Of a stretch of DNA of 57,308 bases, positions 1-26,062 are shown piece after piece. The stretch is from the NCBI GenBank assembly GCA_018658465.1, contig JABHVE010000016.1, forward strand, positions 1 through 57,308, read 5' to 3'. Origin of the DNA: Alphaproteobacteria bacterium (lineage in GTDB: Bacteria; Pseudomonadota; Alphaproteobacteria; UBA2966; CAIVPW01). How positions within the stretch are numbered: the stretch's first letter is position 1; every line of letters begins with the position of its first letter. Both the position numbers and the translations under genes were made by a program. The notes under the pieces were generated by a model. It was not told the origin of the DNA. It did no database searches and saw only the letters and a program-made list of their open reading frames with translations.

Positions 1-528
1 CGAGGGTTCGGCGCGTTTTCAGAATGGGTTCGAATGGCGTCCGAAGCTCGTCGGGGAACGTGCCCAATTCATGGATATGCGGCAATAGGCCCCGACGCTG
101 AACTAGTTTCTGAAGCGGACGAAACAAAATCCTTTGGACCGGGGTCTGCGTTCGACGCCATGCACCAGGCCGGGTTTTCACTGCTACTTTTAGGATGCTC
201 ATTTCAACAGGGCGCGACCTTCGTGCACCATGTGGAATCGAATGTCGGTGTCCCATACCGGGAGTGGCTGAAATTGCCTCGCCAAATTCGCCAATCGGAT
301 GGCGGCATCCACAAAATCCAAGTCGACTACTACGCGCGGATGAATGGGACTCCGTGGCAACCCCATCTTCATGACCTGCAAGAAGAAATGATGAGGAAGG
401 ATCTGACGGTGTCAGTTGCTGCTCCTTACGGAACCAGTCATCTGATGCAATTGGATACCCTATACAAAACAACCAAAGCGATGCTTTCAGAAAATCCCCT
501 TGCGATGGTCATCAATGATCCAGCTTAG
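1..528 (+). CDS. AAC(3)-family (Antibiotic_NAT fold) N-acyltransferase; 5' end lies outside the window
   Basis: Frame 1 is open from nt 1, with no stop before the listed ATG at 34, so the gene is cut by the window edge. Segments SFGPGSAFDAM, LLLLGCSFQQGATFVHHVE and VPYREW resemble the conserved core of aminoglycoside 3-N-acetyltransferase-like enzymes. Stop is TAG 526-528. Confidence 0.65.
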   Translation, partial: RGFGAFSEWVRMASEARRGTCPIHGYAAIGPDAELVSEADETKSFGPGSAFDAMHQAGFSLLLLGCSFQQGATFVHHVESNVGVPYREWLKLPRQIRQSDGGIHKIQVDYYARMNGTPWQPHLHDLQEEMMRKDLTVSVAAPYGTSHLMQLDTLYKTTKAMLSENPLAMVINDPA

Positions 529-1981
529 CCCGACCGACCCTGTGGCTAGGCTGCTGGCCCATTGCCATGGGCAGCCCGATCATCCAGCCGTTGTTACCGA
601 AACTGAGACCGTGACATACGGCGAATTTGGCGATCGGGTGCGGCAATTTGCATCGGCTGTGGTGGGGGTTGGGGAAGCTCCAAAGGTGCTGATCCAGCTT
701 CCTCAGGGGGCGAACGCCTATGCAGCAATGTTCGGAGCGCTAATGGCCGGTGGATTTTATGCGCCGATCGATGTGGCGGCACCGCCGGCCCGTCGGCAAA
801 AAATTTTTGAAAGCTTTGGCCCGGACGTAGTGATCACCAAGGGAGAGCTGGAATCGAATGCTCCCGTGATCGATCCCTCCCAGATCGATCTTCCCGGCTT
901 AGAAGCTCCCAAAACACCACACGAATTGGCCTATGTGATCTTTACGTCGGGATCCACGGGGGAGCCAAAGGGCGTGAATATCCCACGGGATGGATTGGCC
1001 CACTATGCCGCCTGGGCTATCGACGCGATGGAGGTCACACCCGCCGATCGCTGGTCGCAGCATCCAAACATTGCCTTCGATCTTAGCGTGTTGGATATTT
1101 ATGGGGCATTGTGTGGCGGTGCGACTTTGTACCCGCTGATCTCTCAAAAGGATCGTTTATTCCCCGCCGATATGATCCGCCGGAACAAACTGACAATCTG
1201 GGATTCTGTCCCCAGCGTGATCGATTTAATGCAGCGCACAGGCCAAGTGGATGCTGAACACCTTTCATCATTACGGCTAGCCACGTTCTGCGGGGAACCG
1301 TTGCTTGGCGAACATTTAGACGCTCTGTTTGGCGCCCATGGGGCCCTGAACGTTCACAACACCTATGGCCCGACCGAAGCTACCGTTTCGTGCACACTGA
1401 TCGAATTGAATCAGGCAAATTACCGCGAAGCTATCGGCACCAGCGTGGCTTTGGGGGAGGCAATTCCAGGAATGGGTCTTCATCTTGTGGACGGACCGGA
1501 CGAAAACGAAGGTGAAATTGTTCTGTCCGGGCCCCAAGTTGCCAAAGGGTATTGGCAAGATGCGGAACGATCGAAAGCCGCATTCGTCGAGCTTGAAATC
1601 GATGGCAAACGCCACGCTGTGTACCGTACCGGTGACTGGGGCGCGTACCGGGGTGGTAATTTGTTTTTTGGCTCGCGAACCGACCGCCAAGTCAAGATCC
1701 ATGGCCACCGGCTGGAATTGGGGGAGGTCGACGCCGCCATGCGCGCATGCGGTGCAACATCTGCCTGCACCGTTCTGGCGGGTGGCGAATTGCATGGCTT
1801 CGTGGAAGGGATCCCACAGGCCGATATTGCTGGGTTTCGAAAAAAGCTCCAGGATCAGCTTCCGGCCTATGCTGTCCCGCGAGAATTGCATCCGACCGCG
1901 GCGTTACCGCGCAACGCCAACGACAAAATTGACTCTGGCGTTTTGACCCGCCAGGTAGAGCAAGAAATGGTGGGCCAATGA
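500..1981 (+). CDS. Stand-alone adenylation enzyme (AMP-dependent ligase, DltA/AlmE-like)
   Basis: Adenylation core motifs are present: AYVIFTSGSTGEPKGV, NTYGPTE, YRTGDWG, GSRTDRQVKIHGHRLELGEV and a C-terminal NANDKID lysine. Start is TTG 500 or, more likely, ATG 515. The stop overlaps the next start (ATGA at 1978-1981). Confidence 0.9.
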   Translation: MRWSSMIQLSPTDPVARLLAHCHGQPDHPAVVTETETVTYGEFGDRVRQFASAVVGVGEAPKVLIQLPQGANAYAAMFGALMAGGFYAPIDVAAPPARRQKIFESFGPDVVITKGELESNAPVIDPSQIDLPGLEAPKTPHELAYVIFTSGSTGEPKGVNIPRDGLAHYAAWAIDAMEVTPADRWSQHPNIAFDLSVLDIYGALCGGATLYPLISQKDRLFPADMIRRNKLTIWDSVPSVIDLMQRTGQVDAEHLSSLRLATFCGEPLLGEHLDALFGAHGALNVHNTYGPTEATVSCTLIELNQANYREAIGTSVALGEAIPGMGLHLVDGPDENEGEIVLSGPQVAKGYWQDAERSKAAFVELEIDGKRHAVYRTGDWGAYRGGNLFFGSRTDRQVKIHGHRLELGEVDAAMRACGATSACTVLAGGELHGFVEGIPQADIAGFRKKLQDQLPAYAVPRELHPTAALPRNANDKIDSGVLTRQVEQEMVGQ

Positions 1982-2253
1982 GCACAACCGACGATCACAG
2001 CGCAAACGAGGTTCGACGAATTGTTTTGAATTTCATCCAACCTGACTTAAAGCGGTTGGGTCTTGAAGCCGACCAAGTCAGCGACAAAACGGATTTGCTG
2101 GAACAAGGGATCGTCGATTCGTTCGGGTTTCTGGATTTGATCGGTGCAGTGGAAGACGGCCTTGGCCTGTCCCTTGACCTTGGTGGCCTTGATCCCGAAA
2201 AAATGGCCACGCTGGGCGGGTTGATTGGTGGGTTTCTCGACGGTGCCAAGTAA
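1978..2253 (+). CDS. Acyl/aminoacyl carrier protein (DltC-like, 91 aa)
   Basis: Small acidic protein with a phosphopantetheine-serine context, GIVDSFGFLDLIGAVE. It is translationally coupled (ATGA) to the adenylation enzyme. Confidence 0.8.
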   Translation: MSTTDDHSANEVRRIVLNFIQPDLKRLGLEADQVSDKTDLLEQGIVDSFGFLDLIGAVEDGLGLSLDLGGLDPEKMATLGGLIGGFLDGAK

Positions 2254-2266
2254 TCCACCACGCTTT

Positions 2267-3148
2267 GTGATCGTTGGGGATGGCAGTCCCGCCCAGGAAG
2301 CTGTGAAGTTTCTTGTAGGTGCTGAGGCGGCTATTTCGGCAGTGTTCACAACCTCGAAGGAAAGCCGCGGGCTAGTAAACTTTGTTGAAAGTAAAAACCT
2401 ACCCTGGTTTGAAAGCGAAACACTTAAGGACATCCATAATATTCCACCCCTCGCATTCGATGGGAATTGGCTGATCAATGCCTTTAGCCCGATCATCCTG
2501 CGCGCCGCCGTTCTTGATCGATTTGGCCCCCAAGCACTCAACCTTCACAATGGGCCGCTTCCTCAATATGCAGGCATAAACGTCACCCAGTGGGCGATCC
2601 GCAACGGAGAAAGCGACTCCGCTTGCACAATCCACGAAATGACAAAAAAAATTGACGGTGGCCCAATCGTTGCCACACGCACGTTTCCTATCGGGCTTGA
2701 GGAAACTGGCCTTGATGTTTTTCGCAACAGTATGAAAATCGGCGCCGCGCTCTTGGTCGATGTCCTGCAAATGATTCTGGATAAAAAGCCGCTCCAGTCG
2801 CACCCTCAGAGCGCTGAAAATCGCCGCGTCTACTCGATGAAGGAAGCAAAAAATTCGGTTCTTGATTGGGCACTTGATGCAGAACAAGTGCGGGATTTCA
2901 TTCGGGCCGCAGATTACCGGCCGATGCAATCGCCAACTTATCAAGCACAATGGAGACTGCCTGGTGGGGAGCTTGTTCAATTGTCCAGGGCTAAAGTTGT
3001 GACCGGAAGATCAGGTTCGACGGGGGAGGTTTTATCGATTGATGATCAGGGACCGACGATCATTTGTGGCAATAATGCCGTGAAAATTACAGCTGCGTAT
3101 CTCGGCGCAAAAAAATTGGACAGGGCTTCGTGGACAAAACTTCTTTGA
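2267..3148 (+). CDS. Formyltransferase-fold protein (Fmt/ArnA-N-like, N- and C-terminal domains)
   Basis: LNLHNGPLPQYAGINVTQWAI is a variant of the HxSLLPxxRG motif, followed by IHEMTKKIDGGPIV with the catalytic Asp context. The C-terminal part has an Fmt_C-like beta-barrel (GEVLSIDDQGPTIICGNNAVKI). The track ORF begins at TTG 2225, but GTG 2267 (MIVGDGSP) avoids overlap with the carrier protein gene. Confidence 0.7.
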   Translation: MIVGDGSPAQEAVKFLVGAEAAISAVFTTSKESRGLVNFVESKNLPWFESETLKDIHNIPPLAFDGNWLINAFSPIILRAAVLDRFGPQALNLHNGPLPQYAGINVTQWAIRNGESDSACTIHEMTKKIDGGPIVATRTFPIGLEETGLDVFRNSMKIGAALLVDVLQMILDKKPLQSHPQSAENRRVYSMKEAKNSVLDWALDAEQVRDFIRAADYRPMQSPTYQAQWRLPGGELVQLSRAKVVTGRSGSTGEVLSIDDQGPTIICGNNAVKITAAYLGAKKLDRASWTKLL

Positions 3149-4500
3149 GCGCAATCGGTTCCGCTTCGGGATCCGGCAAATCAATGCGGGATTTTTTGGT
3201 CGCGTTATGGCCCCTGCACCGCACTCTGAACAGTGACGACATGGAACGAGCGCTGGAAATGTGCGGCGAATTCGTCGCAGATTTGGGCGATCAGGTTCAA
3301 TTTCGAATGGAGCGATTCCGACCTGGCGAAGATGTTTATACCTGGTGGATCCCCGAGCGATACAAAGTTAACGAAGCTTGGCTAGAAATCGACGGTGAAC
3401 GCATTGCAGACTTCAAAGACAATCCCCTTCATCTGTTGTCGTATTCCGTACCAACGGTCATCGATGGGCGTCTTGGCGACATGCGTGATCACATTTGGTC
3501 CCGAGAAAAAAACCCTGACGCTATTCCGTGGGAATTCAAATACTACGATCGGTCATGGGGATTTTGTGTACGCCATAATGATCTAATGCGATTCCGTGAC
3601 GACGCAGTCGTAAAGGGCGTAATTGACGTTGAGTTTACCGACGAGGATTTTTGTATCGCAGATATTTTCTTGCCCGGTGAGTCCGATGAAGAAATGCTAT
3701 TTTTGACCAATATCTGCCATCCGATGCAGGTCAACGATTCTATATCCGGATTGGTGGTTGCCCTGGAAATGGTGCGGACACTGGCTGCCCGAAAAGACAG
3801 ACGTTATGGGCTCCGCGTTCTGATTGTCCCTGAAACGATTGGCACGATGGCGTGGCTGTCACGAAACGAGAAAATCGCTGCTCGCGCAAAATTCGCGTGG
3901 TTCTGTGAAATCATTGGTCACGATAATTCTTTCGCCCTGCAGCACTCTCGCCAAGAAACCTCGGCACTTATTGACCGAGCCTTTTTGTCAGTTTTGCGCG
4001 GGCATCGGGTGCACGGCGAAGAGCGAACAGGGGAATTTCGTAAGCTAGTTGCTAGCGATGAGATGATAACGAACGGCCCTGGATGGGACCTGCCGACGCC
4101 CTGCTTGAACCGGTGGCCATATGACGAATATCACACCAGCGATGACAACCCGGATATCATTTCCGAAGAAAATCTTAGTGAAACACTGGATGTCTTTATT
4201 GATCTTTGGGATGCGCTGGAAAAGAATTATTACCCCCGACGCACCTTTATTGGCCCCGTCATGTTATCTCGTTACGGCCTGTGGGTAGATTGGCGCGAAG
4301 ATCGCAGCTTGAATTTGGCAATCGATGACTTAATGTGCCTGCTGGAAGGTGATTTCTCAATCATCGATATCGCCCACCAACTCAGCCTGCCCGCAAGCAC
4401 CGTATTTTTCTACTTGAATCGATTTTTTGAAGCGGGACTGATAGAAAAGAGCCCAACACCGTGGGCGCAACAAGCTAGAACGGTTGGCGAAGAATTCTGA
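3130..4500 (+). CDS. Aminopeptidase-like (M28-like) DUF4910/COG4310 protein with C-terminal winged-helix
   Basis: Carries the EYHTSDDNPD metal-site-like motif typical of M28-like folds and the C-terminal DIAHQLSLPASTVFFYLNRFFEAGLIEK wHTH. An alternative ATG at 3184 (MRDFLVALWPLHRTL) looks like the usual family N-terminus. Confidence 0.6.
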   Translation: MDKTSLSAIGSASGSGKSMRDFLVALWPLHRTLNSDDMERALEMCGEFVADLGDQVQFRMERFRPGEDVYTWWIPERYKVNEAWLEIDGERIADFKDNPLHLLSYSVPTVIDGRLGDMRDHIWSREKNPDAIPWEFKYYDRSWGFCVRHNDLMRFRDDAVVKGVIDVEFTDEDFCIADIFLPGESDEEMLFLTNICHPMQVNDSISGLVVALEMVRTLAARKDRRYGLRVLIVPETIGTMAWLSRNEKIAARAKFAWFCEIIGHDNSFALQHSRQETSALIDRAFLSVLRGHRVHGEERTGEFRKLVASDEMITNGPGWDLPTPCLNRWPYDEYHTSDDNPDIISEENLSETLDVFIDLWDALEKNYYPRRTFIGPVMLSRYGLWVDWREDRSLNLAIDDLMCLLEGDFSIIDIAHQLSLPASTVFFYLNRFFEAGLIEKSPTPWAQQARTVGEEF

Positions 4501-6423: not shown

Positions 6424-7530
6424 GTGCCAACAATAATTATTACGTCAATGGGTGGGGCAGGGAGCAACAATCTTGTCGATACCCTGCGGTTAGTCGATGC
6501 AGACAAATCTAGCGACACAGAGAGGCACACAACGATTGGGACCCATGTTATTCCGATGGAGTTGGCGAAAGGTGAAGCTGATCACCAATATCTTGTTCCC
6601 TCGGCATCGGACGAAGCGGACTATGTTGCAGCCCACAAAAGAATCGCCGCGAAACACGACGCCGATGTCTTAATCGCCAACAGTGATGTGGAAGTCGCTG
6701 TCTGGAGCCGCCACAGGGAGGACATCCCCTGCAAGCACTTGATCCCGGACCCACAGGTTGTGGCCGGGGTCCAGGACAAGTTCGAATTCTCCCAACTATT
6801 GAAAAGACACGGATGCGACACAGTTCCCAATGCACCGATTACATCGATTGATTTGATTCCCGACGCTTTGGCAGAAATTCCCGCGGGCGAAAAATTTTGG
6901 ATCAGACGTCGGGGTGGTAGTGGGTCTGTAGGAGCCACCTGGTTGACCAGTGCCGATCAGGCAAAGAAATGGCTTGAGCTGTGGCAAGAAATGCGTGGAT
7001 TTCAAGCTGATGAATTTGTCGTAGCGCCATTTTTACCCGGTCGCGATTTTTGCGTCGCCACCCTTTGGCAGAACGGCGAATTTGCTGTTGGCAAAATTTA
7101 CGAACGACTGACCTATTGGGGGGCGCAGGGTTCCTTGTCCAGCATGGGATCTTCCCCGGATTGCGCCAGAACAGTCGCCGAGACATGGCCAATTGAGCAG
7201 GCGAAAAAGGCGATCCAAGCGGTATGTTCCGAATTTGGCACCCAGCCCCATGGATTCTACCAAGCAGACCTAAAATGTGCGGACGACAAAACCGCCTTGG
7301 TAACTGAAATCAATATTGGCCGCTTTCCGCAGACTTCCACCCACTTTGATCGGGTTGGGGAGTACAGAATGTTGGAGCTATATCTTCAACTGATCCTTGA
7401 TCCGGGCCAGAATTTGCCCCGGGATGTGCTTGACGTGGTTGCTGATCGATTCGTACTGCGCGGCATCGATATGCCGGTGAAACTCGTTGATAAGGCAACG
7501 CTGGATGCTTTCGAGGAAAATCGGATTTAA
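6424..7530 (+). CDS. ATP-grasp family amide ligase
   Basis: A glycine-rich loop (FWIRRRGGSGSVGATW) plus the late Mg/ATP motif ALVTEINIGRF, which is characteristic of ATP-grasp enzymes. Start is GTG at 6424. Confidence 0.7.
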   Translation: MPTIIITSMGGAGSNNLVDTLRLVDADKSSDTERHTTIGTHVIPMELAKGEADHQYLVPSASDEADYVAAHKRIAAKHDADVLIANSDVEVAVWSRHREDIPCKHLIPDPQVVAGVQDKFEFSQLLKRHGCDTVPNAPITSIDLIPDALAEIPAGEKFWIRRRGGSGSVGATWLTSADQAKKWLELWQEMRGFQADEFVVAPFLPGRDFCVATLWQNGEFAVGKIYERLTYWGAQGSLSSMGSSPDCARTVAETWPIEQAKKAIQAVCSEFGTQPHGFYQADLKCADDKTALVTEINIGRFPQTSTHFDRVGEYRMLELYLQLILDPGQNLPRDVLDVVADRFVLRGIDMPVKLVDKATLDAFEENRI

Positions 7531-8588
7531 TGCAATCAGGGCCACTAAGACTAACGGTCCACCGCCACCAATTTCGACTGCGAAACCCCTATGTCCTGTC
7601 CTTCGCAACTTTGGAACATATCGACACGTTTTACGTGACAGCAGAGCAAAACGGCGCGGTAGGGCACGGGGAGGTCACCCCCCTGCCAGGGTACAGTGAC
7701 GAAAGCGCAGGCTCCGTAATCGCCGCGTTGGAATTCATTGGCAAGAATGAGCCGACGGAGATCACTGAGATCACCGAATCCTTGAGCACAAGGGCACCAA
7801 TCCTGACCAGCGGGATTACTTGCGCCATCGAAACTCTTGACGATCAAGGGGCGTGGAACGGCCTTGAAAAACCAATTCCTTTGGCCGGGCTTTGTGCCGG
7901 CACCGCCCCCGAAGCAGCGGCAGCAGAGGCGCGGGAGCTCTGCAGTCAGGGATACAAAGCCCTGAAAATGAAAATTGGGGCCGATGGACTTGATCAAGAT
8001 CTCCAGCGCGTTCGATCGGTTGCACAGACAATTCCCGGTGGCGTGAATTTAAGCCTCGACGCCAACCAAGCCCTGTCCTTTGACGGGGCGATGAACCTGT
8101 GTGCAGGGATCGGAGATCTTCCTGTGAGTTTTGTTGAACAGCCCTTCGCCCCACAGGCTTGGGATCTCACCGCTGACCTTGCCACCGCCACCTCAGTCCC
8201 AATCATGATGGACGAGTCTATCTGGCATGCCGAGGACATCGCCCGCGCCAGCGCCGTCGGAGCAAAATTCGTAAAACTAAAGCTTTGCAAACATCGCGGA
8301 GCGAAAGACACACTGGCAATGATCGCTCTGGCATCCGACCAGGGCCTAGGCGTTGTGCTTGGTAACGGCGTGCAGTCTTCCCTTGGCAACCATCTTGAGG
8401 CAAAAATTTACGAAACAGCAAATCTATCAACCGCCGGCGAATTCAACGGATTCGCGAAATTCGACAGTCCTTGGATGCCTGACGGAATGTCGGTGGAAAA
8501 TGGCGCGTTGGTAGATGGTGGCATCGACCCGTCCTCGGTGTCCCAGCCCACCGACCAAAAAATTTTCCAAATTGATCTGCCGACCTAG
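7530..8588 (+). CDS. Enolase-superfamily enzyme, MLE subgroup (dipeptide epimerase / N-acylamino-acid racemase-like)
   Basis: KxK motif (YKALKMKIG), three metal ligands (LSLDANQAL, FVEQP, IMMDESI) and a second catalytic Lys (FVKLKLCKHRG). Its ATG shares one nucleotide with the upstream TAA (TAATG, 7528-7532). Confidence 0.85.
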   Translation: MQSGPLRLTVHRHQFRLRNPYVLSFATLEHIDTFYVTAEQNGAVGHGEVTPLPGYSDESAGSVIAALEFIGKNEPTEITEITESLSTRAPILTSGITCAIETLDDQGAWNGLEKPIPLAGLCAGTAPEAAAAEARELCSQGYKALKMKIGADGLDQDLQRVRSVAQTIPGGVNLSLDANQALSFDGAMNLCAGIGDLPVSFVEQPFAPQAWDLTADLATATSVPIMMDESIWHAEDIARASAVGAKFVKLKLCKHRGAKDTLAMIALASDQGLGVVLGNGVQSSLGNHLEAKIYETANLSTAGEFNGFAKFDSPWMPDGMSVENGALVDGGIDPSSVSQPTDQKIFQIDLPT

Positions 8589-8674: not shown

Positions 8675-10216
8675 ATGAACGCTCCTCTGATCCTTGGTGT
8701 CTCCGCCAGCCTTCGCAATGCCCGTTCCAAGCGTGGCTCAGATGATCTTGTTGGCCAGATTTCCACCCTCGTTGATCGTGAGGCCTTGAACGAATTCATT
8801 GACGAACAAGCCAACATCCATGTTGAGCAATTCCTTGAAGCCGGTCGGTCCGAGGGCCTTCCGTTTGACGAACTCTACCTTCGACTGCGCAAGATGGGCG
8901 GGCATCGAGGCTTATCGAACAGCGAAGTGTGCTTGGCTGCGGCCCTGTGGGCGGCAAAAAACCAAGGCTGCGATATCGAAAATATTGCGTTGCATGACCA
9001 TTTTCCCGCTGATGGAGAGGCGCGGGATTTGGATGACCTGAAAGAGCGGGTCATGCGCGCCGACGGTATTTTGCTTTCATCCCCCGTCTATTTCGGCGAC
9101 CGCAGCTCCCTTAGCCAAAATTTCATTGAACTCCTTCGCGGTGACCCGGAATTACGCGAGGCAATGAAGGCAAAAATCTATGCCGGATTGGCCGTTGGCG
9201 CCAAGCGTAACGGCGGCCAGGAAACCACCCTGATTTACCAGATGTTGGACTTCTTGAATTTGGGAGCCCTGGCGGTCGGCAACGATTCCGAAACGACCTC
9301 CCAATATGGCGGGACCGCCCATGCTGGCGACATCGGAACGGTAGTCGCCGACAAGTATGGCATTGACACAAGCCTGGGCACCGGGCGTCGCATTGCCCGC
9401 GTTGCAAAGCAAATGAAATCAGCGGAAGAAGTGCGGCTGCGGGACAAGCCGATCCTAAATTTTTGGTCTCTCCAGGACAGTGGAGGCCAACTTGGAAAAT
9501 GGATGCAGCCACTTTTGGACAGCGCCAAACCAAACGCCGACATCATCCAATGCGATCTTTTGTCTCAACCAATTCGGCCCTGTTTGGCGTGCGACATTTG
9601 CCCGATCCATGTGGGCCCGGACCAGGAATACCGTTGCATCATCAAGCGCAAATCGGACGGTGTCGTTGCCGCACATCAGGATTTGTTGTCCGGAGACGTC
9701 ATTGTGCCTGCGGTTTTTTCACCCGTAGATCGTCAAGGCCTGGAGACGGCGTATCAGGAATTTATGGAGCGATCGCGGTATTTGCGGCGCGGGGACTATG
9801 TGTTCACAGATCGCCTGGTCGCACCGTTGGTAATCGAAGAAGTTGGGGCAAACGAGAATTTGGACATCCGCCTGATGACGTCCTTTATTCGCCACCACAC
9901 TGTGATGATGAAACCAATTATCGGTTTGATTTACGAAGACAAGCTAATCAATGAAGCTGAAGTGCTCCAAGGGATGGCGGATGCCGTCGCCGCAGGTGCT
10001 AAGCTCGCCGCGGGGCGCCTGGCCATGGCGTCATTGAATGATGAAAGCGTCCGGTACAATCCAGTCGGGTATGTTCTGTCACGAGAAAAAGACAACGACC
10101 CAATCACAATGAATCAGCGCGCCAAATCAAGCGACGAGCGCATGACTCGCTTGGGGGCAGAGGCGAAAACCCGGTTGGAGACCCAGCAACCTGATGAAAA
10201 ATTCATCGCGAGCTAG
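8675..10216 (+). CDS. Tandem flavodoxin-like (NADPH-dependent FMN reductase / iron-sulfur flavoprotein-like) protein, 513 aa
   Basis: The N-half has ILGVSASLRNARS and ADGILLSSPVYFGDRSS, the FMN-reductase signature. The C-half repeats the pattern (ILNFWSLQDSGG ... GDVIVPAVFSPVD) and carries a compact cysteine motif, PCLACDICP...YRC, like Isf-type 4Fe-4S sites. Confidence 0.6.
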   Translation: MNAPLILGVSASLRNARSKRGSDDLVGQISTLVDREALNEFIDEQANIHVEQFLEAGRSEGLPFDELYLRLRKMGGHRGLSNSEVCLAAALWAAKNQGCDIENIALHDHFPADGEARDLDDLKERVMRADGILLSSPVYFGDRSSLSQNFIELLRGDPELREAMKAKIYAGLAVGAKRNGGQETTLIYQMLDFLNLGALAVGNDSETTSQYGGTAHAGDIGTVVADKYGIDTSLGTGRRIARVAKQMKSAEEVRLRDKPILNFWSLQDSGGQLGKWMQPLLDSAKPNADIIQCDLLSQPIRPCLACDICPIHVGPDQEYRCIIKRKSDGVVAAHQDLLSGDVIVPAVFSPVDRQGLETAYQEFMERSRYLRRGDYVFTDRLVAPLVIEEVGANENLDIRLMTSFIRHHTVMMKPIIGLIYEDKLINEAEVLQGMADAVAAGAKLAAGRLAMASLNDESVRYNPVGYVLSREKDNDPITMNQRAKSSDERMTRLGAEAKTRLETQQPDEKFIAS

Positions 10217-12121: not shown

Positions 12122-13021
12122 ATGCAGTTGGCCCTTGGCACTGTTCAATTCGGACTGGATTATGGGATTTCCAACAGCCATGGAAAATGCCTCCCCGCCG
12201 AAGCAGAAAAAATTGTCGGACAAGCGATCAAGGCTGGCGTGAGTGTTATCGATACGGCCCCCACGTATGGGGAATCCGAAGAGGTTCTGGGCAAAATACT
12301 CCCCACCGATCATTCTTTTAACATTGTCACGAAAACGCCAAGTTTCGCTGCGGCCTCCTCGCCGCCCATGGCAGCAGATCTGGTCGAAGAAACCCTGATT
12401 AATTCTCTGACTAGACTGAAGTCCGACAAAATCTATGGGATCCTTGTTCATCTTGCTGACGAACTTTTTTCTGACTTGGGTCAGGCTGTGTTCGACCGCC
12501 TTGGCTCTTTGCGTGACCAAGGAATCGTTCGCAAGATCGGTGTTTCCGTATATTCGGCAGAGCATATTGATCGCTTGGTACCAAAATTTCCGATCCAAGT
12601 TGTGCAGGCACCCGTCAACATTTTTGACCAGCGCCTAGTGATCAACGGACAGCTCAATCGGCTAAAGGAATTGGGGATCGAATTTCATGCGCGCTCGATA
12701 TTCTTACAGGGGCTCTTGCTGATGAAACTGAAAAATGATCTGCCAGATCATCTGATACCGCTGGAGCCAGCCTTAGCGCGCTTCCACAAGGACCATGGAG
12801 TGATCGGAATGACCGAGGTAGAAGCCGCCGTTGGGTTTATTTCCCAATTGAGCGAAGTCGATCATGCCGTTGTGGGCGTTACATCTGTGGCGGAATTTGA
12901 CCAAGTCGCTGCCGCTGCCCAGGGCAACTTCGATGTGTCCCTTGAGTGGCCGTCATATGCCGAAACGTCGGATTTTCTGCTTGATCCCAGCCAGTGGCCA
13001 AAACCCAAGTTGAATTCATGA
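12122..13021 (+). CDS. Aldo/keto reductase
   Basis: The N-terminal LGTVQFGLDYG and IDTAPTYGESEEVLG match the AKR signature. Its stop overlaps the next start (ATGA at 13018-13021). Confidence 0.85.
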   Translation: MQLALGTVQFGLDYGISNSHGKCLPAEAEKIVGQAIKAGVSVIDTAPTYGESEEVLGKILPTDHSFNIVTKTPSFAAASSPPMAADLVEETLINSLTRLKSDKIYGILVHLADELFSDLGQAVFDRLGSLRDQGIVRKIGVSVYSAEHIDRLVPKFPIQVVQAPVNIFDQRLVINGQLNRLKELGIEFHARSIFLQGLLLMKLKNDLPDHLIPLEPALARFHKDHGVIGMTEVEAAVGFISQLSEVDHAVVGVTSVAEFDQVAAAAQGNFDVSLEWPSYAETSDFLLDPSQWPKPKLNS

Positions 13022-14013
13022 CCATTCGAATCATGGCCGAGGCCGCCCAAGGGTACGAAGGCAAAATCGAGTACTGCATGACCTATGTCAGCGCCGCGGC
13101 AAAAGCAAACGCCGACGCGGTGAAGTTCCAGATTGTCTATGCCGACGATATTTGCGAGCCCGGCCATGTGCACTATGAGATTTTCAGGTCCCTGGAAATG
13201 CCCACCGAAAATTGGGCGGCGGTAAAAAATTCTGCGGACGAAAAATCCATCCCATTTGTGGCGGAAATTTTTGGCGGGCAAAGTCTGGAAGTCGCTGAAA
13301 TCCTGAAGCCGAACTGGATCAAGATCCATTCCACGGATTTCTTCAATCGCCCGTTGATCAAGCGATCCTTTGAAATAGCCCAGACTGTTTTTGTCTCTGC
13401 CGGTGGCGCCACCGAGGACGAAATCACCAATTTAGTTGATGAGATTTCCAGCTGGGGAAGCGCCAGTCAACTTGTTCTTCTGTACGGCTTTCAGGCGGAG
13501 CCCACCCCGATCGAAAAAAGTGGATTGGCCAAAATTCCCGTTCTGCGGAAACGGTTTCCGGATATTGAATTGGGATATCTAGATCACACAGCAGGTGAGT
13601 CCGAAGATCGCGTCCACGTGTCAGCAATGGCGATGGCACTTGGCGTCCATTGGATTGAGAAACACATCACCCTTAGTCGATTTTTAGAAGTCGAAGATTT
13701 TGTTTCAGCCTTAGAACCAGATGAGTTCGCGAACTACGTGCAGGCAATGCACCGCCTTTCCGGCGCGTTCGGTGCCGCCGACCTTTCCCTTTCCGACGAG
13801 GAAAAGACTTACCGCGACAAAGCCATGAAAAAGGTCTTGGCCGCGAGAGACCTTGTGGCCGGAGACGTCATCTCCGACTCCGACATCAAATTGATAAGAA
13901 CACCGCGTATCGCTCCGGGTTCTGGTCTTCATGACCCAGCACAGATCATCGGTCAGCGCCTTGCCAACAACCATCGGGCCGGCGAAGCGTTCCAGCCGGG
14001 GGATTTTGAATGA
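13018..14013 (+). CDS. Divergent NeuB/SpsE-family nonulosonic-acid synthase-like protein with C-terminal SAF domain
   Basis: IMAEAAQGYEG...ANADAVKFQ aligns with the NeuB IAEIGxNHNG...AVKFQ N-terminus but has a diverged glycine/His motif. DHT and EKH motifs are present. The C-terminal AARDLVAGDVISDSDIKLIRTP is SAF-like. ATG 13018 is preferred over the track start at 12994. Confidence 0.8.
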   Translation: MTIRIMAEAAQGYEGKIEYCMTYVSAAAKANADAVKFQIVYADDICEPGHVHYEIFRSLEMPTENWAAVKNSADEKSIPFVAEIFGGQSLEVAEILKPNWIKIHSTDFFNRPLIKRSFEIAQTVFVSAGGATEDEITNLVDEISSWGSASQLVLLYGFQAEPTPIEKSGLAKIPVLRKRFPDIELGYLDHTAGESEDRVHVSAMAMALGVHWIEKHITLSRFLEVEDFVSALEPDEFANYVQAMHRLSGAFGAADLSLSDEEKTYRDKAMKKVLAARDLVAGDVISDSDIKLIRTPRIAPGSGLHDPAQIIGQRLANNHRAGEAFQPGDFE

Positions 14014-24418: not shown

Positions 24419-26062
24419 ATGCCCCTAATTAGCCGCAGGGTTTGGTCTGGGTCCAACCCGCTATTCTTCCGGACCGTCGCCAAAGCAGCCGATGGGAGCT
24501 CTGTCCCAGCTGGGTACAAGTTTTCTCGCCTCACCGATCCGGCCGTCCTGGAACAATCAATTTTCTCCATCCGGGACCGTGCTTTGCGCATGCGGCCAAG
24601 ATTGCAAAGCAACCACCATTGCTACGGGTTTACAACGCCGTCAGGGGAGGTCGTATCGTTCATTTGGATATCCATCGCCGAAACAGAGCCAATGGAGGTA
24701 CCCTTCCGCGACGGTATGAGCATTCGATTGAATCCCGGACAGGCCTATGTTTGGGATTGCGCCACCGTTGCCTCGCACCAACGTCGAGGCCTTTACCGCG
24801 CGGGGCTTCACCAGGCGCTTGGGCTTGCCGCCCATGCAGGCGCCATTGATTGCTACATTTGCACCGATGAAGAAAACGTGGCGTCCGTGCGAGGCATTTT
24901 AGGCGCGGGTTTTGAGAGATGCTTTGACCTTTCATTGAGGCGCATTGGGCCTGTGCGCCAAATTGGTGAGGCGGAGAACAAGGCACTGGTCTTGGGCCGC
25001 GCGCCTCCGGTGCAACTGCACCCAGGAACCCATTCAGGCCCTCGGATTTTCGTTTTTGGAAACAGCGGATACGCGACGATGGTCTTACGCTCGTTGATGG
25101 AGCGAAATGGACATATTGTGGGTGTTTGCAGTCGCGGCCTGGGGCCTTGGAGTCGCCGCATAGGGCGCGGTGCAAGCCGATTGGCGCGAACGCTTGGGAT
25201 CGATCCAAGAGAAAATTTTAATCACCGAGAGGTCTTCGATGAACTGGAGCGACCCACTGAGGTCGCGCGCCAGGTAGGGGTTCCGGTTCTTGACTCCCGC
25301 GATATTCTCAGTCCCGATTTCGAAAATTTTCTTCGCCGCCTGGGCCCGGATTTAATTTTGGTGGCTGGGTTTCACCGGCTAATTCCACCCAACATCATTG
25401 CCGTTGCCAACAAAGCCGCCGTCAATCTTCACCCCAGCCTGCTACCAAAACACCGAGGTGGGACCCCCGCACGGTGGGTGGTAAAACTGGGCGAGCGCAA
25501 TACCGGTGCGACCGCCCATATCCTAAGCCCGGAATTCGATACCGGAGATATTTTGGCCCAGTCCGAATGCCCTGTTTTCGAGAACGACACTTCAGGAGAT
25601 GTGGAGCTTCGCGTTTCCCATCTGATGGTGGATTTGGCCAACAAGGTCGTGGACGACGTTGCCGCCGAAACCCTGCAAAAATTGCCGCAAAATGAAAGTT
25701 CTGCAACTTATGAAGCGCCGTTTCATAGTGGATATCAAGAGATCGATTGGTCCTTACCAGCCAGCGAGATCCGACGAATCTGCTACGCAATGCGACCAAA
25801 ATCCGGGGGCATGGCCTGGTATGGGGACAAGCGGGTTTGCGTGTGGAACCTAACACCAGCGGACAACACCAATCCCGGCAAGGCTGGTACGGTGTTGGGA
25901 CTTGATGAGGAATTCCGGCCGGTGGTTGCCTGCGGCGATGGAGCTCTGGTCGTCACCGAAGCTTTGTGGAGAGGCCGCGTGGTCCCGGCCGCCTGGATTT
26001 CCAAAAAATTGGGACTAGAGCCAGGCAAACGATTTCGATCAATCTCTGAACTACCCGCTTAA
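24419..26062 (+). CDS. Fusion protein: N-terminal GNAT-like acyltransferase plus C-terminal formyltransferase (Fmt/ArnA-N-like)
   Basis: The first ~190 aa carry a GNAT motif-A-like segment (VASHQRRGLYRAGLHQAL...VASVRGILGAGFE). From about aa 215 the protein has IFVFGNSGYA, a canonical VNLHPSLLPKHRGGTP, HILSPEFDTGDIL and an Fmt C-terminal domain. Confidence 0.8.
   Translation: MPLISRRVWSGSNPLFFRTVAKAADGSSVPAGYKFSRLTDPAVLEQSIFSIRDRALRMRPRLQSNHHCYGFTTPSGEVVSFIWISIAETEPMEVPFRDGMSIRLNPGQAYVWDCATVASHQRRGLYRAGLHQALGLAAHAGAIDCYICTDEENVASVRGILGAGFERCFDLSLRRIGPVRQIGEAENKALVLGRAPPVQLHPGTHSGPRIFVFGNSGYATMVLRSLMERNGHIVGVCSRGLGPWSRRIGRGASRLARTLGIDPRENFNHREVFDELERPTEVARQVGVPVLDSRDILSPDFENFLRRLGPDLILVAGFHRLIPPNIIAVANKAAVNLHPSLLPKHRGGTPARWVVKLGERNTGATAHILSPEFDTGDILAQSECPVFENDTSGDVELRVSHLMVDLANKVVDDVAAETLQKLPQNESSATYEAPFHSGYQEIDWSLPASEIRRICYAMRPKSGGMAWYGDKRVCVWNLTPADNTNPGKAGTVLGLDEEFRPVVACGDGALVVTEALWRGRVVPAAWISKKLGLEPGKRFRSISELPA

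Follow-up and report, generated by a model that had tools for sequence, protein, structure and literature searches.

The window analysed here is the whole of one contig (C31; JABHVE010000016.1), 57,308 nucleotides (nt) long, from an alphaproteobacterial metagenome-assembled genome (MAG) of 2.05 Mb that comprises 155 contigs and is 94.9% complete. Its first 4,500 positions hold five genes on the + strand that overlap at each junction, and the joint function proposed for these genes is the subject of this text. Pfam and NCBIfam profile matches place them in the families that a preliminary description of this DNA had named for them:

1..528, + strand: AAC(3)-fold (Antibiotic_NAT) acyltransferase, the C-terminal 175 of 270 amino acids (aa); PF02522, E 2.5e-18
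515..1981, + strand: stand-alone amino-acid adenylation enzyme (A) of the non-ribosomal peptide synthetase (NRPS) type, 488 aa; PF00501, E 3.7e-64; TIGR01733, 312.1 bits
1978..2253, + strand: phosphopantetheine carrier protein (CP), 91 aa; PF00550, 22.7 bits (cut-off 20.8)
2228..3148, + strand: formyltransferase (FT) with N- and C-terminal domains, 306 aa; PF00551 and PF02911
3130..4500, + strand: DUF4910/DUF2172 M28-like one-zinc protein of the Cj1295 / CA_C2195 family; PF16254, E 7.6e-53 (179 bits), and PF09940, E 3e-21 (76 bits)

The first of these genes, which we refer to as AAC3-like or AAC3, is cut by the contig edge, and its N-terminus is found on contig C128 at about 13090-13364. The metagenome contig L002 bridges the end of C128 and the start of C31 with 100% identity and a gap of 10 nt (C128:12919-13364) and encodes the protein at its full length of 270 aa (L002:172-984). 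Since L002 joins both contigs in this way, the AAC3-like gene is intact in nature and the operon continues upstream of the window. The gene of the adenylation enzyme overlaps the AAC3-like gene by 14 nt; its start is more likely ATG 515 than the TTG 500 of the preliminary description, the 488-aa call being found on three other assemblies. Its ATGA coupling to the carrier gene can be read directly at 1978-1981, as had been noted. The FT start is called at GTG 2228, with the previously given 2267 as an alternative. All five genes stand, with small shifts of their starts. The DUF4910 gene overlaps the FT gene by 19 nt and starts at GTG 3130 or ATG 3184. While the assignment of its product to DUF4910 with an inserted DUF2172 domain holds, the winged helix ascribed to it (HTH_47) is not reported by Pfam in the window copy at E<=0.001; an HTH_47 C-terminal winged helix is present in DUF4910 homologues. 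The attachment serine of the carrier sits in the sequence GIVDSFGF (DSF motif), and the host genome encodes two phosphopantetheinyl transferases able to make the holo-carrier. A carrier of identical sequence occurs on 22 metagenome contigs, one of which, 481 kb long, has the same gene order. Judged by their gene content, the surroundings are a pseudaminic-type nonulosonic-acid operon of 26 kb, within which the window module is translationally coupled and which reaches about 13 kb upstream of the window onto C128.

Substrate pocket and catalytic motifs

The TIGR01733 score of the adenylation enzyme lies just below the cut-off of 317.4 bits, and the FDLSV, YGPTE and NDKID motifs are present. Its nearest PDB entries are LgrA A2 (the top full-length match), AlmE (4oxi), DltA and PltF. 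The preliminary description had considered that the enzyme might activate a fatty or aryl acid instead of an amino acid. A ligase of that type is excluded because both Asp235, which binds the alpha-amino group, and the A10 lysine (Lys517) are retained, and the pocket code comes closest to those of DltA and AlmE. The ten pocket positions were mapped by HMMER alignments to solved enzymes and then extracted across the loci described below, with the following results:

Window: DLLDTCTVSK
Five closest relatives: DLLN(T/S)CTVSK
B. subtilis DltA (D-Ala): DLMTMCTVAK
Sister group (13 loci including Halovenus): DLHF(L/F)C(L/I)I(A/G)K
V. cholerae AlmE (4oxi): DLHLFCLIAK

The code of the window enzyme equals that of DltA at six of the ten positions, including Cys301, and is more polar at 278 (Asp/Asn), 299 (Thr/Ser) and 331 (Ser), while the AlmE-type glycine pocket is absent from it (DLLDTCTVSK versus DLHLFCLIAK). 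The sister group matches AlmE, a glycine-specific enzyme, at eight to nine of the ten positions and probably loads glycine. For the window group, the code points to a small, possibly polar alpha-amino acid, possibly Ala/Ser or similar. A substrate resembling diaminobutyrate (Dab), considered in view of the TVSK shared with Dab codes, was dropped, as the pocket has no conserved acidic residue (the Asp at position 278 of the window enzyme is Asn in the five relatives).

The catalytic triad of the FT (N105/H107/D143) is invariant in 13 homologues and aligns with N102/H104/D140 of ArnA. Over the whole length the closest matches are ArnA-FT and Met-tRNA formyltransferase (E about 1e-32); the F domain of LgrA matches with 1e-16. 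In this family, G(P/K)LP/YAG stands in place of the canonical SLLP/YRG motif of the folate loop. The protein had been described as having a formyltransferase fold; with its intact triad and two domains, it looks like a true formyltransferase and not one in fold only. The solved structure nearest to the AAC3-like enzyme is that of FrbF (3sma, E 1e-20), with AAC(3) enzymes next, and 13 module homologues share the motifs H..E, HS..G, LLLG and VPYR.W without variation. In FrbF, the amine that becomes acetylated belongs to a CMP-linked substrate, and the likeness may be taken as a hint at the acceptor of the AAC3-like enzyme. A role as an aminoglycoside resistance gene was rejected, since the best model (NF033082) gives 81 bits against a cut-off of 270 and all resistance models stay far below theirs. 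The DUF4910 protein matches 3k9t with an E value of 2e-42, and the His/Asp/His residues that bind its one zinc are retained (CHP..ND, YHTS); with it, solved homologues cover all four folds of the module.

For the DUF4910 family, Das et al. described the single Zn site and a link to genes for an "aminosugar N-acetyltransferase" and an acyl carrier protein (ACP) (PMC4000134). Hitchen et al. found that the family member Cj1295 is required for a pseudaminic acid in which 2,3-di-O-methylglyceroyl replaces the N5 acetyl group, and proposed that Cj1295 removes this acetyl group (PMC3068675). A survey from 2026 still enters cj1295 as a putative transferase (PMC13130089).

Recurrence and fusions of the module

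In a survey of one genome per species, two peptide patterns yielded 26 loci, 21 of which contain true members of the FT family. Together with the metagenome contig L010 these make up the 22 loci considered here, whose components were tallied with hidden Markov models built from the module proteins. With 74 representative clusters at E<=1e-30 in a set of 1.84 billion proteins, the family of this FT is a small one. Besides the FT, present in all 22 loci, we counted an A domain in 19, a carrier in about 20, an AAC3-like enzyme in 17 and a DUF4910 protein in 13; in one locus a ligase of the aminoacyl-tRNA synthetase (aaRS) type replaces the A domain, and no A-domain match was found in L023, a contig of 2.6 kb, and in L014, where the 2.7 kb upstream of the carrier hold only short open reading frames (ORFs). 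When all neighbouring ORFs were clustered, A, carrier, AAC3 and DUF4910 came out far ahead, with NeuB next (within 10 kb in 6 loci). The hosts belong to seven phyla and include Alphaproteobacteria, Desulfobacterota, Myxococcota, Bacteroidota, a Synechococcus, an Anaerolineales MAG and the haloarchaeon Halovenus rubra. Hence, the five genes, for which the preliminary description had suggested a survey of co-occurrence, are found together widely outside this genome. Their order varies between AAC3-A-CP-FT-DUF4910 (window), A-CP-FT-AAC3-DUF4910 and AAC3-FT-A-CP, and since the module is kept through such shuffling, its conservation speaks for functional coupling and against frozen synteny. Of 19 module carriers, 17 retain the DS motif. 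In L010 and L019 the AAC3, A and DUF4910 genes are split over several frames, which is probably due to indel errors of long-read assemblies and not to decay.

All parts of the module other than A are linked to each other by natural fusions:

CP-FT: Halovenus rubra, L028:9698-10903; also P0054
AAC3-CP-FT: P0109, 756 aa
FT-DUF4910/DUF2172/HTH_47: P0122, 924 aa
AAC3 (2-257)-CP (313-385, GGLDS)-FT (424-720)-DUF4910 (804-1159): P0163, 1282 aa

The locus in which the loader is exchanged lies in the Anaerolineales MAG (L021:4615-10985). It is devoid of an A domain and encodes an ACP and a homologue of aaRS-type amino acid--[ACP] ligases, followed by FT-AAC3-DUF4910; the best match of the ligase is NF005479 with 186 bits, below the cut-off of 357. 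Since two unrelated loaders, an A domain and an aaRS-type ligase, feed into FT-AAC3-DUF4910, an aminoacyl-S-carrier would be the common intermediate. A general link between the module and aaRS-type carrier ligases was rejected: 13 of 14 alphaproteobacterial ligase loci are without FT, AAC3 and DUF4910, and none of the 14 has an AAC3-like gene. The remaining one (L076), a locus with two NeuB genes, is the only one with DUF4910 and an FT-like gene nearby. The exchange of the loader in L021 is thus real, if occasional. The module genes of L021 are followed by a gene for a GT-C/PMT_2-like membrane glycosyltransferase. In the alphaproteobacterial L076 (342-12446), the aaRS-type carrier ligase and a carrier adjoin a hexapeptide acyltransferase, and a PIG-L de-N-acetylase and a sulfotransferase are encoded along with DUF4910; Pfam recognises only the C-terminal domain of the FT-like protein.

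In trees of the A and AAC3 proteins, the window group and the sister group are each separated at 100/100 support by branches of 2.4 and 1.9 changes per site, respectively. The FT tree splits the two groups only shallowly (0.25-0.57) and mixes them in part. This pattern lends soft support to an FT that would act on a common alpha-amine, with AAC3 tracking the acyl group or the acceptor.

Individual loci differ from this picture in further respects. A Xanthobacteraceae MAG carries the module FT fused to a luciferase-like monooxygenase (L013:9749-12031), and neither an AAC3-like nor a DUF4910 gene was detected nearby. Directly upstream of A, the deltaproteobacterial loci L011 (6515-8146) and L027 (6340-8019), which are without DUF4910 and sugar genes, encode a soluble protein of about 550 aa (41% identity) that has no Pfam or NCBIfam match and led only to unnamed clusters in an Atlas look-up. 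The module of Halovenus rubra adjoins an integrase, a DDE transposase and a primase-polymerase-like gene (L028:1475-7242), which suggests that it may have reached this host on a mobile element.

A proposed carrier-dependent acylation route and its rivals

The preliminary description had suggested a cytoplasmic route from the carrier to an amino sugar. The setting among PseB, NeuB, PseF-like and WbuX genes supports such a route, the transfer to the sugar still being a proposal. With slightly better than even confidence we favour a more specific version, in which a cytoplasmic, carrier-dependent module provides a sugar amine with a small N-formylated amino acid where an N-acetyl group would normally sit. 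Gene content, conservation, fusions, the intactness of the catalytic motifs and the kind of pocket code are directly seen; which amino acid and which acceptor take part, in what order the steps run and what DUF4910 does are inferred as follows. The A enzyme would activate a small alpha-amino acid (Ala/Ser-like in the window, probably Gly in the sister group) and load it as a thioester onto the holo-carrier. The FT would formylate the alpha-amino group with 10-formyl-tetrahydrofolate on the carrier, as in LgrA, or alternatively after the transfer; formylation on the carrier is favoured because of the CP-FT fusions and the LgrA precedent. The DUF4910 zinc protein would expose the acceptor amine, probably by removal of the N-acetyl group as proposed for Cj1295. 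The AAC(3)-fold enzyme, for which the carrier thioester would replace acetyl-CoA, would then place the acyl group on the amine of a nonulosonic acid of the pseudaminic type or of its nucleotide-linked precursor.

Several points weigh against this route. No glycan with an N-formyl-aminoacyl nonulosonic acid is known to us. The pocket code of the window group allows more than one small amino acid. The sister-group loci TL4, L027 and L028 show no sugar genes within 10 kb, so that in some cases the acceptor may be something other than a nonulosonic acid. DUF4910 is absent from 9 of the 22 loci, some of which are shortened by contig ends, and its role as a de-N-acetylase is only a published hypothesis (PMC3068675). 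In its catalytic core the FT most closely resembles sugar N-formyltransferases (4xd1, 5uin, WlaRD), so that the enzyme might formylate the sugar amine directly.

This last likeness also speaks for two independent steps, in which DUF4910 and FT would exchange N-acetyl for N-formyl on one sugar amine, and A, CP and AAC3 would attach an amino acid without formyl group to a second amine, such as one made by the neighbouring class-III aminotransferase. N-formyl nonulosonic acids are known, FT and DUF4910 overlap in the window and are fused in P0122, and a gene for a GSA-aminomutase-like aminotransferase lies directly upstream of AAC3 in window-type loci. We nevertheless consider such a division unlikely, because the CP-FT and AAC3-CP-FT fusions put the carrier physically next to the FT, because A-CP-FT stay together in loci without DUF4910 and without sugar genes, and because the FT, with 22 of 22 loci, is the most constant partner of loader and carrier. 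The assignment of AAC3 and FT could also be reversed, in that the AAC3-like enzyme would use acetyl-CoA to N-acetylate the alpha-amine of the amino acid, bound either to the carrier or to the sugar, and the FT-fold protein would move the aminoacyl thioester to the sugar amine, the product being an N-acetyl-aminoacyl sugar comparable to Leg5Ac7AcAla. The altered folate loop of the FT would fit this exchange of roles, as would the FT-like partner of DUF4910 in L076, whose N-terminal catalytic domain lies beyond Pfam recognition, and the CP-FT fusions are equally compatible with an FT that uses a thioester donor. To our knowledge, however, no formyltransferase-fold enzyme has a thioester donor; the triad and core of the FT match true formyltransferases closely (E down to 1e-32), and the AAC(3) fold is the more economical choice of transferase, since it already accommodates both a pantetheine thioester and the amine of an aminosugar. 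N-acetyl-alanyl legionaminic acid is natural, and Leg5Ac7AcAla has been reported in Vibrio vulnificus without a gene assignment (PMC7371886), yet the species-representative scan with the two peptide patterns found no Vibrio locus, and we give this reversal only a small chance.

A product other than a sugar would be a free metabolite of a small NRPS-like route or an aminoacylated lipid or protein, the position in a glycan operon being incidental. It would suit the loci of TL4, a Desulfovibrionaceae MAG and Halovenus, which adjoin RND efflux genes, the unknown 550-aa protein or mobile-element genes. An assembly line for a natural product was rejected for want of a C domain downstream of the carrier; none of the genes near the module encodes a condensation, thioesterase or reductase domain, and the only C domains of the genome lie on contig C70. 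As the window copy is moreover translationally coupled within the nonulosonic-acid operon, and AAC(3)-fold and DUF4910 proteins are known partners in aminosugar pathways (PMC4000134, PMC3068675), we judge a non-sugar target to be quite improbable. The likeness to the Dlt and Alm systems on which the preliminary description had dwelt holds for the mechanism and fails for membership. Among named families, the A enzyme and the carrier do score best against DltA and DltC, and MBOAT and LpxL-type genes exist elsewhere in the genome, which would allow a Dlt/Alm-type aminoacylation of the envelope with a membrane partner encoded at another site. The equivalog cut-offs are missed by far, with 238.7 bits against 559.85 (TIGR01734) and 253 against 476 (NF003417) for DltA and 20 bits against 68 (NF003464) for DltC. 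As had been noted, the window has no DltB, DltD or AlmG-type gene, and no DltD was found in the whole genome. The one MBOAT gene of the genome (contig C123, L049:6872-8308) stands in a row of unannotated genes without an adjoining carrier or ligase, and the short ORF next to it, which is truncated by the contig end, is without the DS motif of a carrier; the only LpxL-type gene (PF03279) is on contig C117. Across the 22 loci the conserved partners are FT, AAC3 and DUF4910 and never an MBOAT or LpxL gene, so that a true Dlt/Alm system is largely refuted and highly improbable.

The formyl-aminoacyl route that we favour may be part of something broader. We tentatively suggest, with less than even confidence, a widespread machine of bacteria and at least one haloarchaeon that edits nonulosonic acids by deacylation and re-acylation from N-acetyl to N-formyl-aminoacyl, with an A domain or an aaRS-derived ligase as interchangeable loader and an AAC(3)-fold enzyme that takes its acyl group from a carrier instead of CoA. 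The association of DUF4910, AAC3-like and ACP genes in nonulosonic-acid loci is already published; our literature searches found no description of the addition of A-CP-FT, of the two specificity classes, of the fusions or of the swap to an aaRS-type loader. Nonulosonic acids on flagella, capsules, lipopolysaccharide and archaeal S-layers drive phage and host recognition, with N-acyl groups as the main source of diversity. The module bears on how aminoacyl groups are installed and on the function of Cj1295/DUF4910, a question that dates from 2010-2014. If true, the machine would provide the DUF4910/Cj1295 family with a biochemical role and at least some of the orphan amino acid:[carrier protein] ligases with a physiological function, and the gene content would present A domain and aaRS-type ligase as interchangeable loaders. 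It would further predict a sugar modification not yet seen. The favoured route itself would give microbes a new means of surface variation. The module also suggests that the AAC(3) fold may originally, or in parallel, have served to acylate aminosugars from a carrier protein, which bears on the origin of aminoglycoside resistance enzymes. As a compact system of five proteins, the module is reconstitutable; the mass shifts to be expected from it are clear, it occurs in two natural specificity classes, Gly-like and Ala/Ser-like, and cultured strains suited to genetics, such as Desulfoluna butyratoxydans MSL71 and Halovenus rubra R28, carry it.

Known relatives and operon neighbours

By analogy, the Cj1295/Cj1296-7 cassette is a closer precedent for the module than Dlt or Alm. 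Campylobacter jejuni NCTC 11168 (Cj1295 with the N-acetyltransferase Cj1296/7) and Clostridium acetobutylicum (CA_C2195-2199) likewise have genes for DUF4910, an aminosugar N-acyltransferase and an ACP in a pseudaminic or nonulosonic-acid locus (PMC3068675, PMC4000134), and the window, too, holds DUF4910, AAC3-like and carrier genes inside a NeuB/PseB locus. These cassettes differ in that the acyl group is not an amino acid (2,3-di-O-methylglyceroyl) and that, according to the cited papers, the trio with an A domain and FT is missing. The stand-alone A enzyme and small carrier are shared with AlmE/AlmF/AlmG, which puts glycine on lipid A in V. cholerae; there the transferase is the LpxL-like AlmG, whereas the module has an AAC(3)-fold enzyme, FT and DUF4910 in addition and probably a soluble sugar precursor as target. 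A stand-alone A enzyme and carrier are also found in the D-alanylation of teichoic acid (DltA/DltC/DltB/DltD), from which the module differs by the lack of MBOAT and DltD and by a more polar pocket. The initiation module F-A-PCP of the linear gramicidin synthetase LgrA unites the same three activities and is a precedent for the formylation of an aminoacyl thioester, whereas here the proteins are separate, a condensation domain is missing and the FT is closer to ArnA, Met-tRNA formyltransferase and sugar formyltransferases than to LgrA (1e-32 versus 1e-16). FrbF of the FR-900098 pathway and AAC(3) share the fold and the H..E motif with the AAC3-like enzyme and N-acylate an amine from a pantetheine thioester; their donor is acetyl-CoA, in contrast to the acyl-carrier protein proposed for the module. 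The aaRS-derived amino acid:[carrier protein] ligases (NF005479), reportedly described by Mocibob et al. in 2010, are a further related group, a homologue of which replaces A in L021 and another of which lies in the nonulosonic-acid locus L076 with DUF4910. Ligases of this type load Gly or Ala onto small carriers. C. jejuni presumably also has a pair of A enzyme and carrier in Cj1307/Cj1308.

The operon genes upstream of the block, on C128 and the 481-kb contig, are the following:

Upstream: CBS-nucleotidyltransferase; PseF-like cytidylyltransferase; WbuX with HisF/HisH-like partners
Upstream: PseB, 481 bits, above the cut-off
Upstream: methyltransferase; B12-radical-SAM C-methyltransferase; RmlD-like reductase; NeuB; PpgS-like GT2
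C128 (L048):11826-13124, directly before AAC3: GSA-aminomutase-like class-III aminotransferase

The same aminotransferase family occurs in the window-type loci L012, L015, L018 and L019, in three of them immediately 5' of AAC3, and the enzyme may be the source of the acceptor amine or of the amino-acid substrate. In another locus, a member of this family is fused to a CMP-transferase domain (675 aa). Downstream of the block, the window holds the genes listed below, those with coordinates being given for context only:

6424-7530, + strand: ATP-grasp ligase
7530-8588, + strand: enolase-superfamily racemase/epimerase
8675-10216, + strand: FMN-reductase-domain protein
12994..14013, + strand: NeuB-family nonulosonic acid synthase, the second NeuB copy of the operon; PF03102, E 2.4e-38
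Other downstream genes: methyltransferase; unnamed 623-aa protein; aldo-keto reductase

The TIGR03569 and TIGR03586 matches of the window NeuB stay under their cut-offs. The ATP-grasp, epimerase and FMN-reductase-domain proteins show 52%, 42% and 56% identity, respectively, to the products of genes at the same positions in the Mesoflavibacter locus L015, and the ATP-grasp ligase gene is also present in L019. The block conserved in window-type loci may thus be larger than five genes, and these three proteins may extend or epimerise the acyl chain. Later in the operon (window 24419-26062), a second formyltransferase of 547 aa with an N-terminal GNAT domain is encoded.

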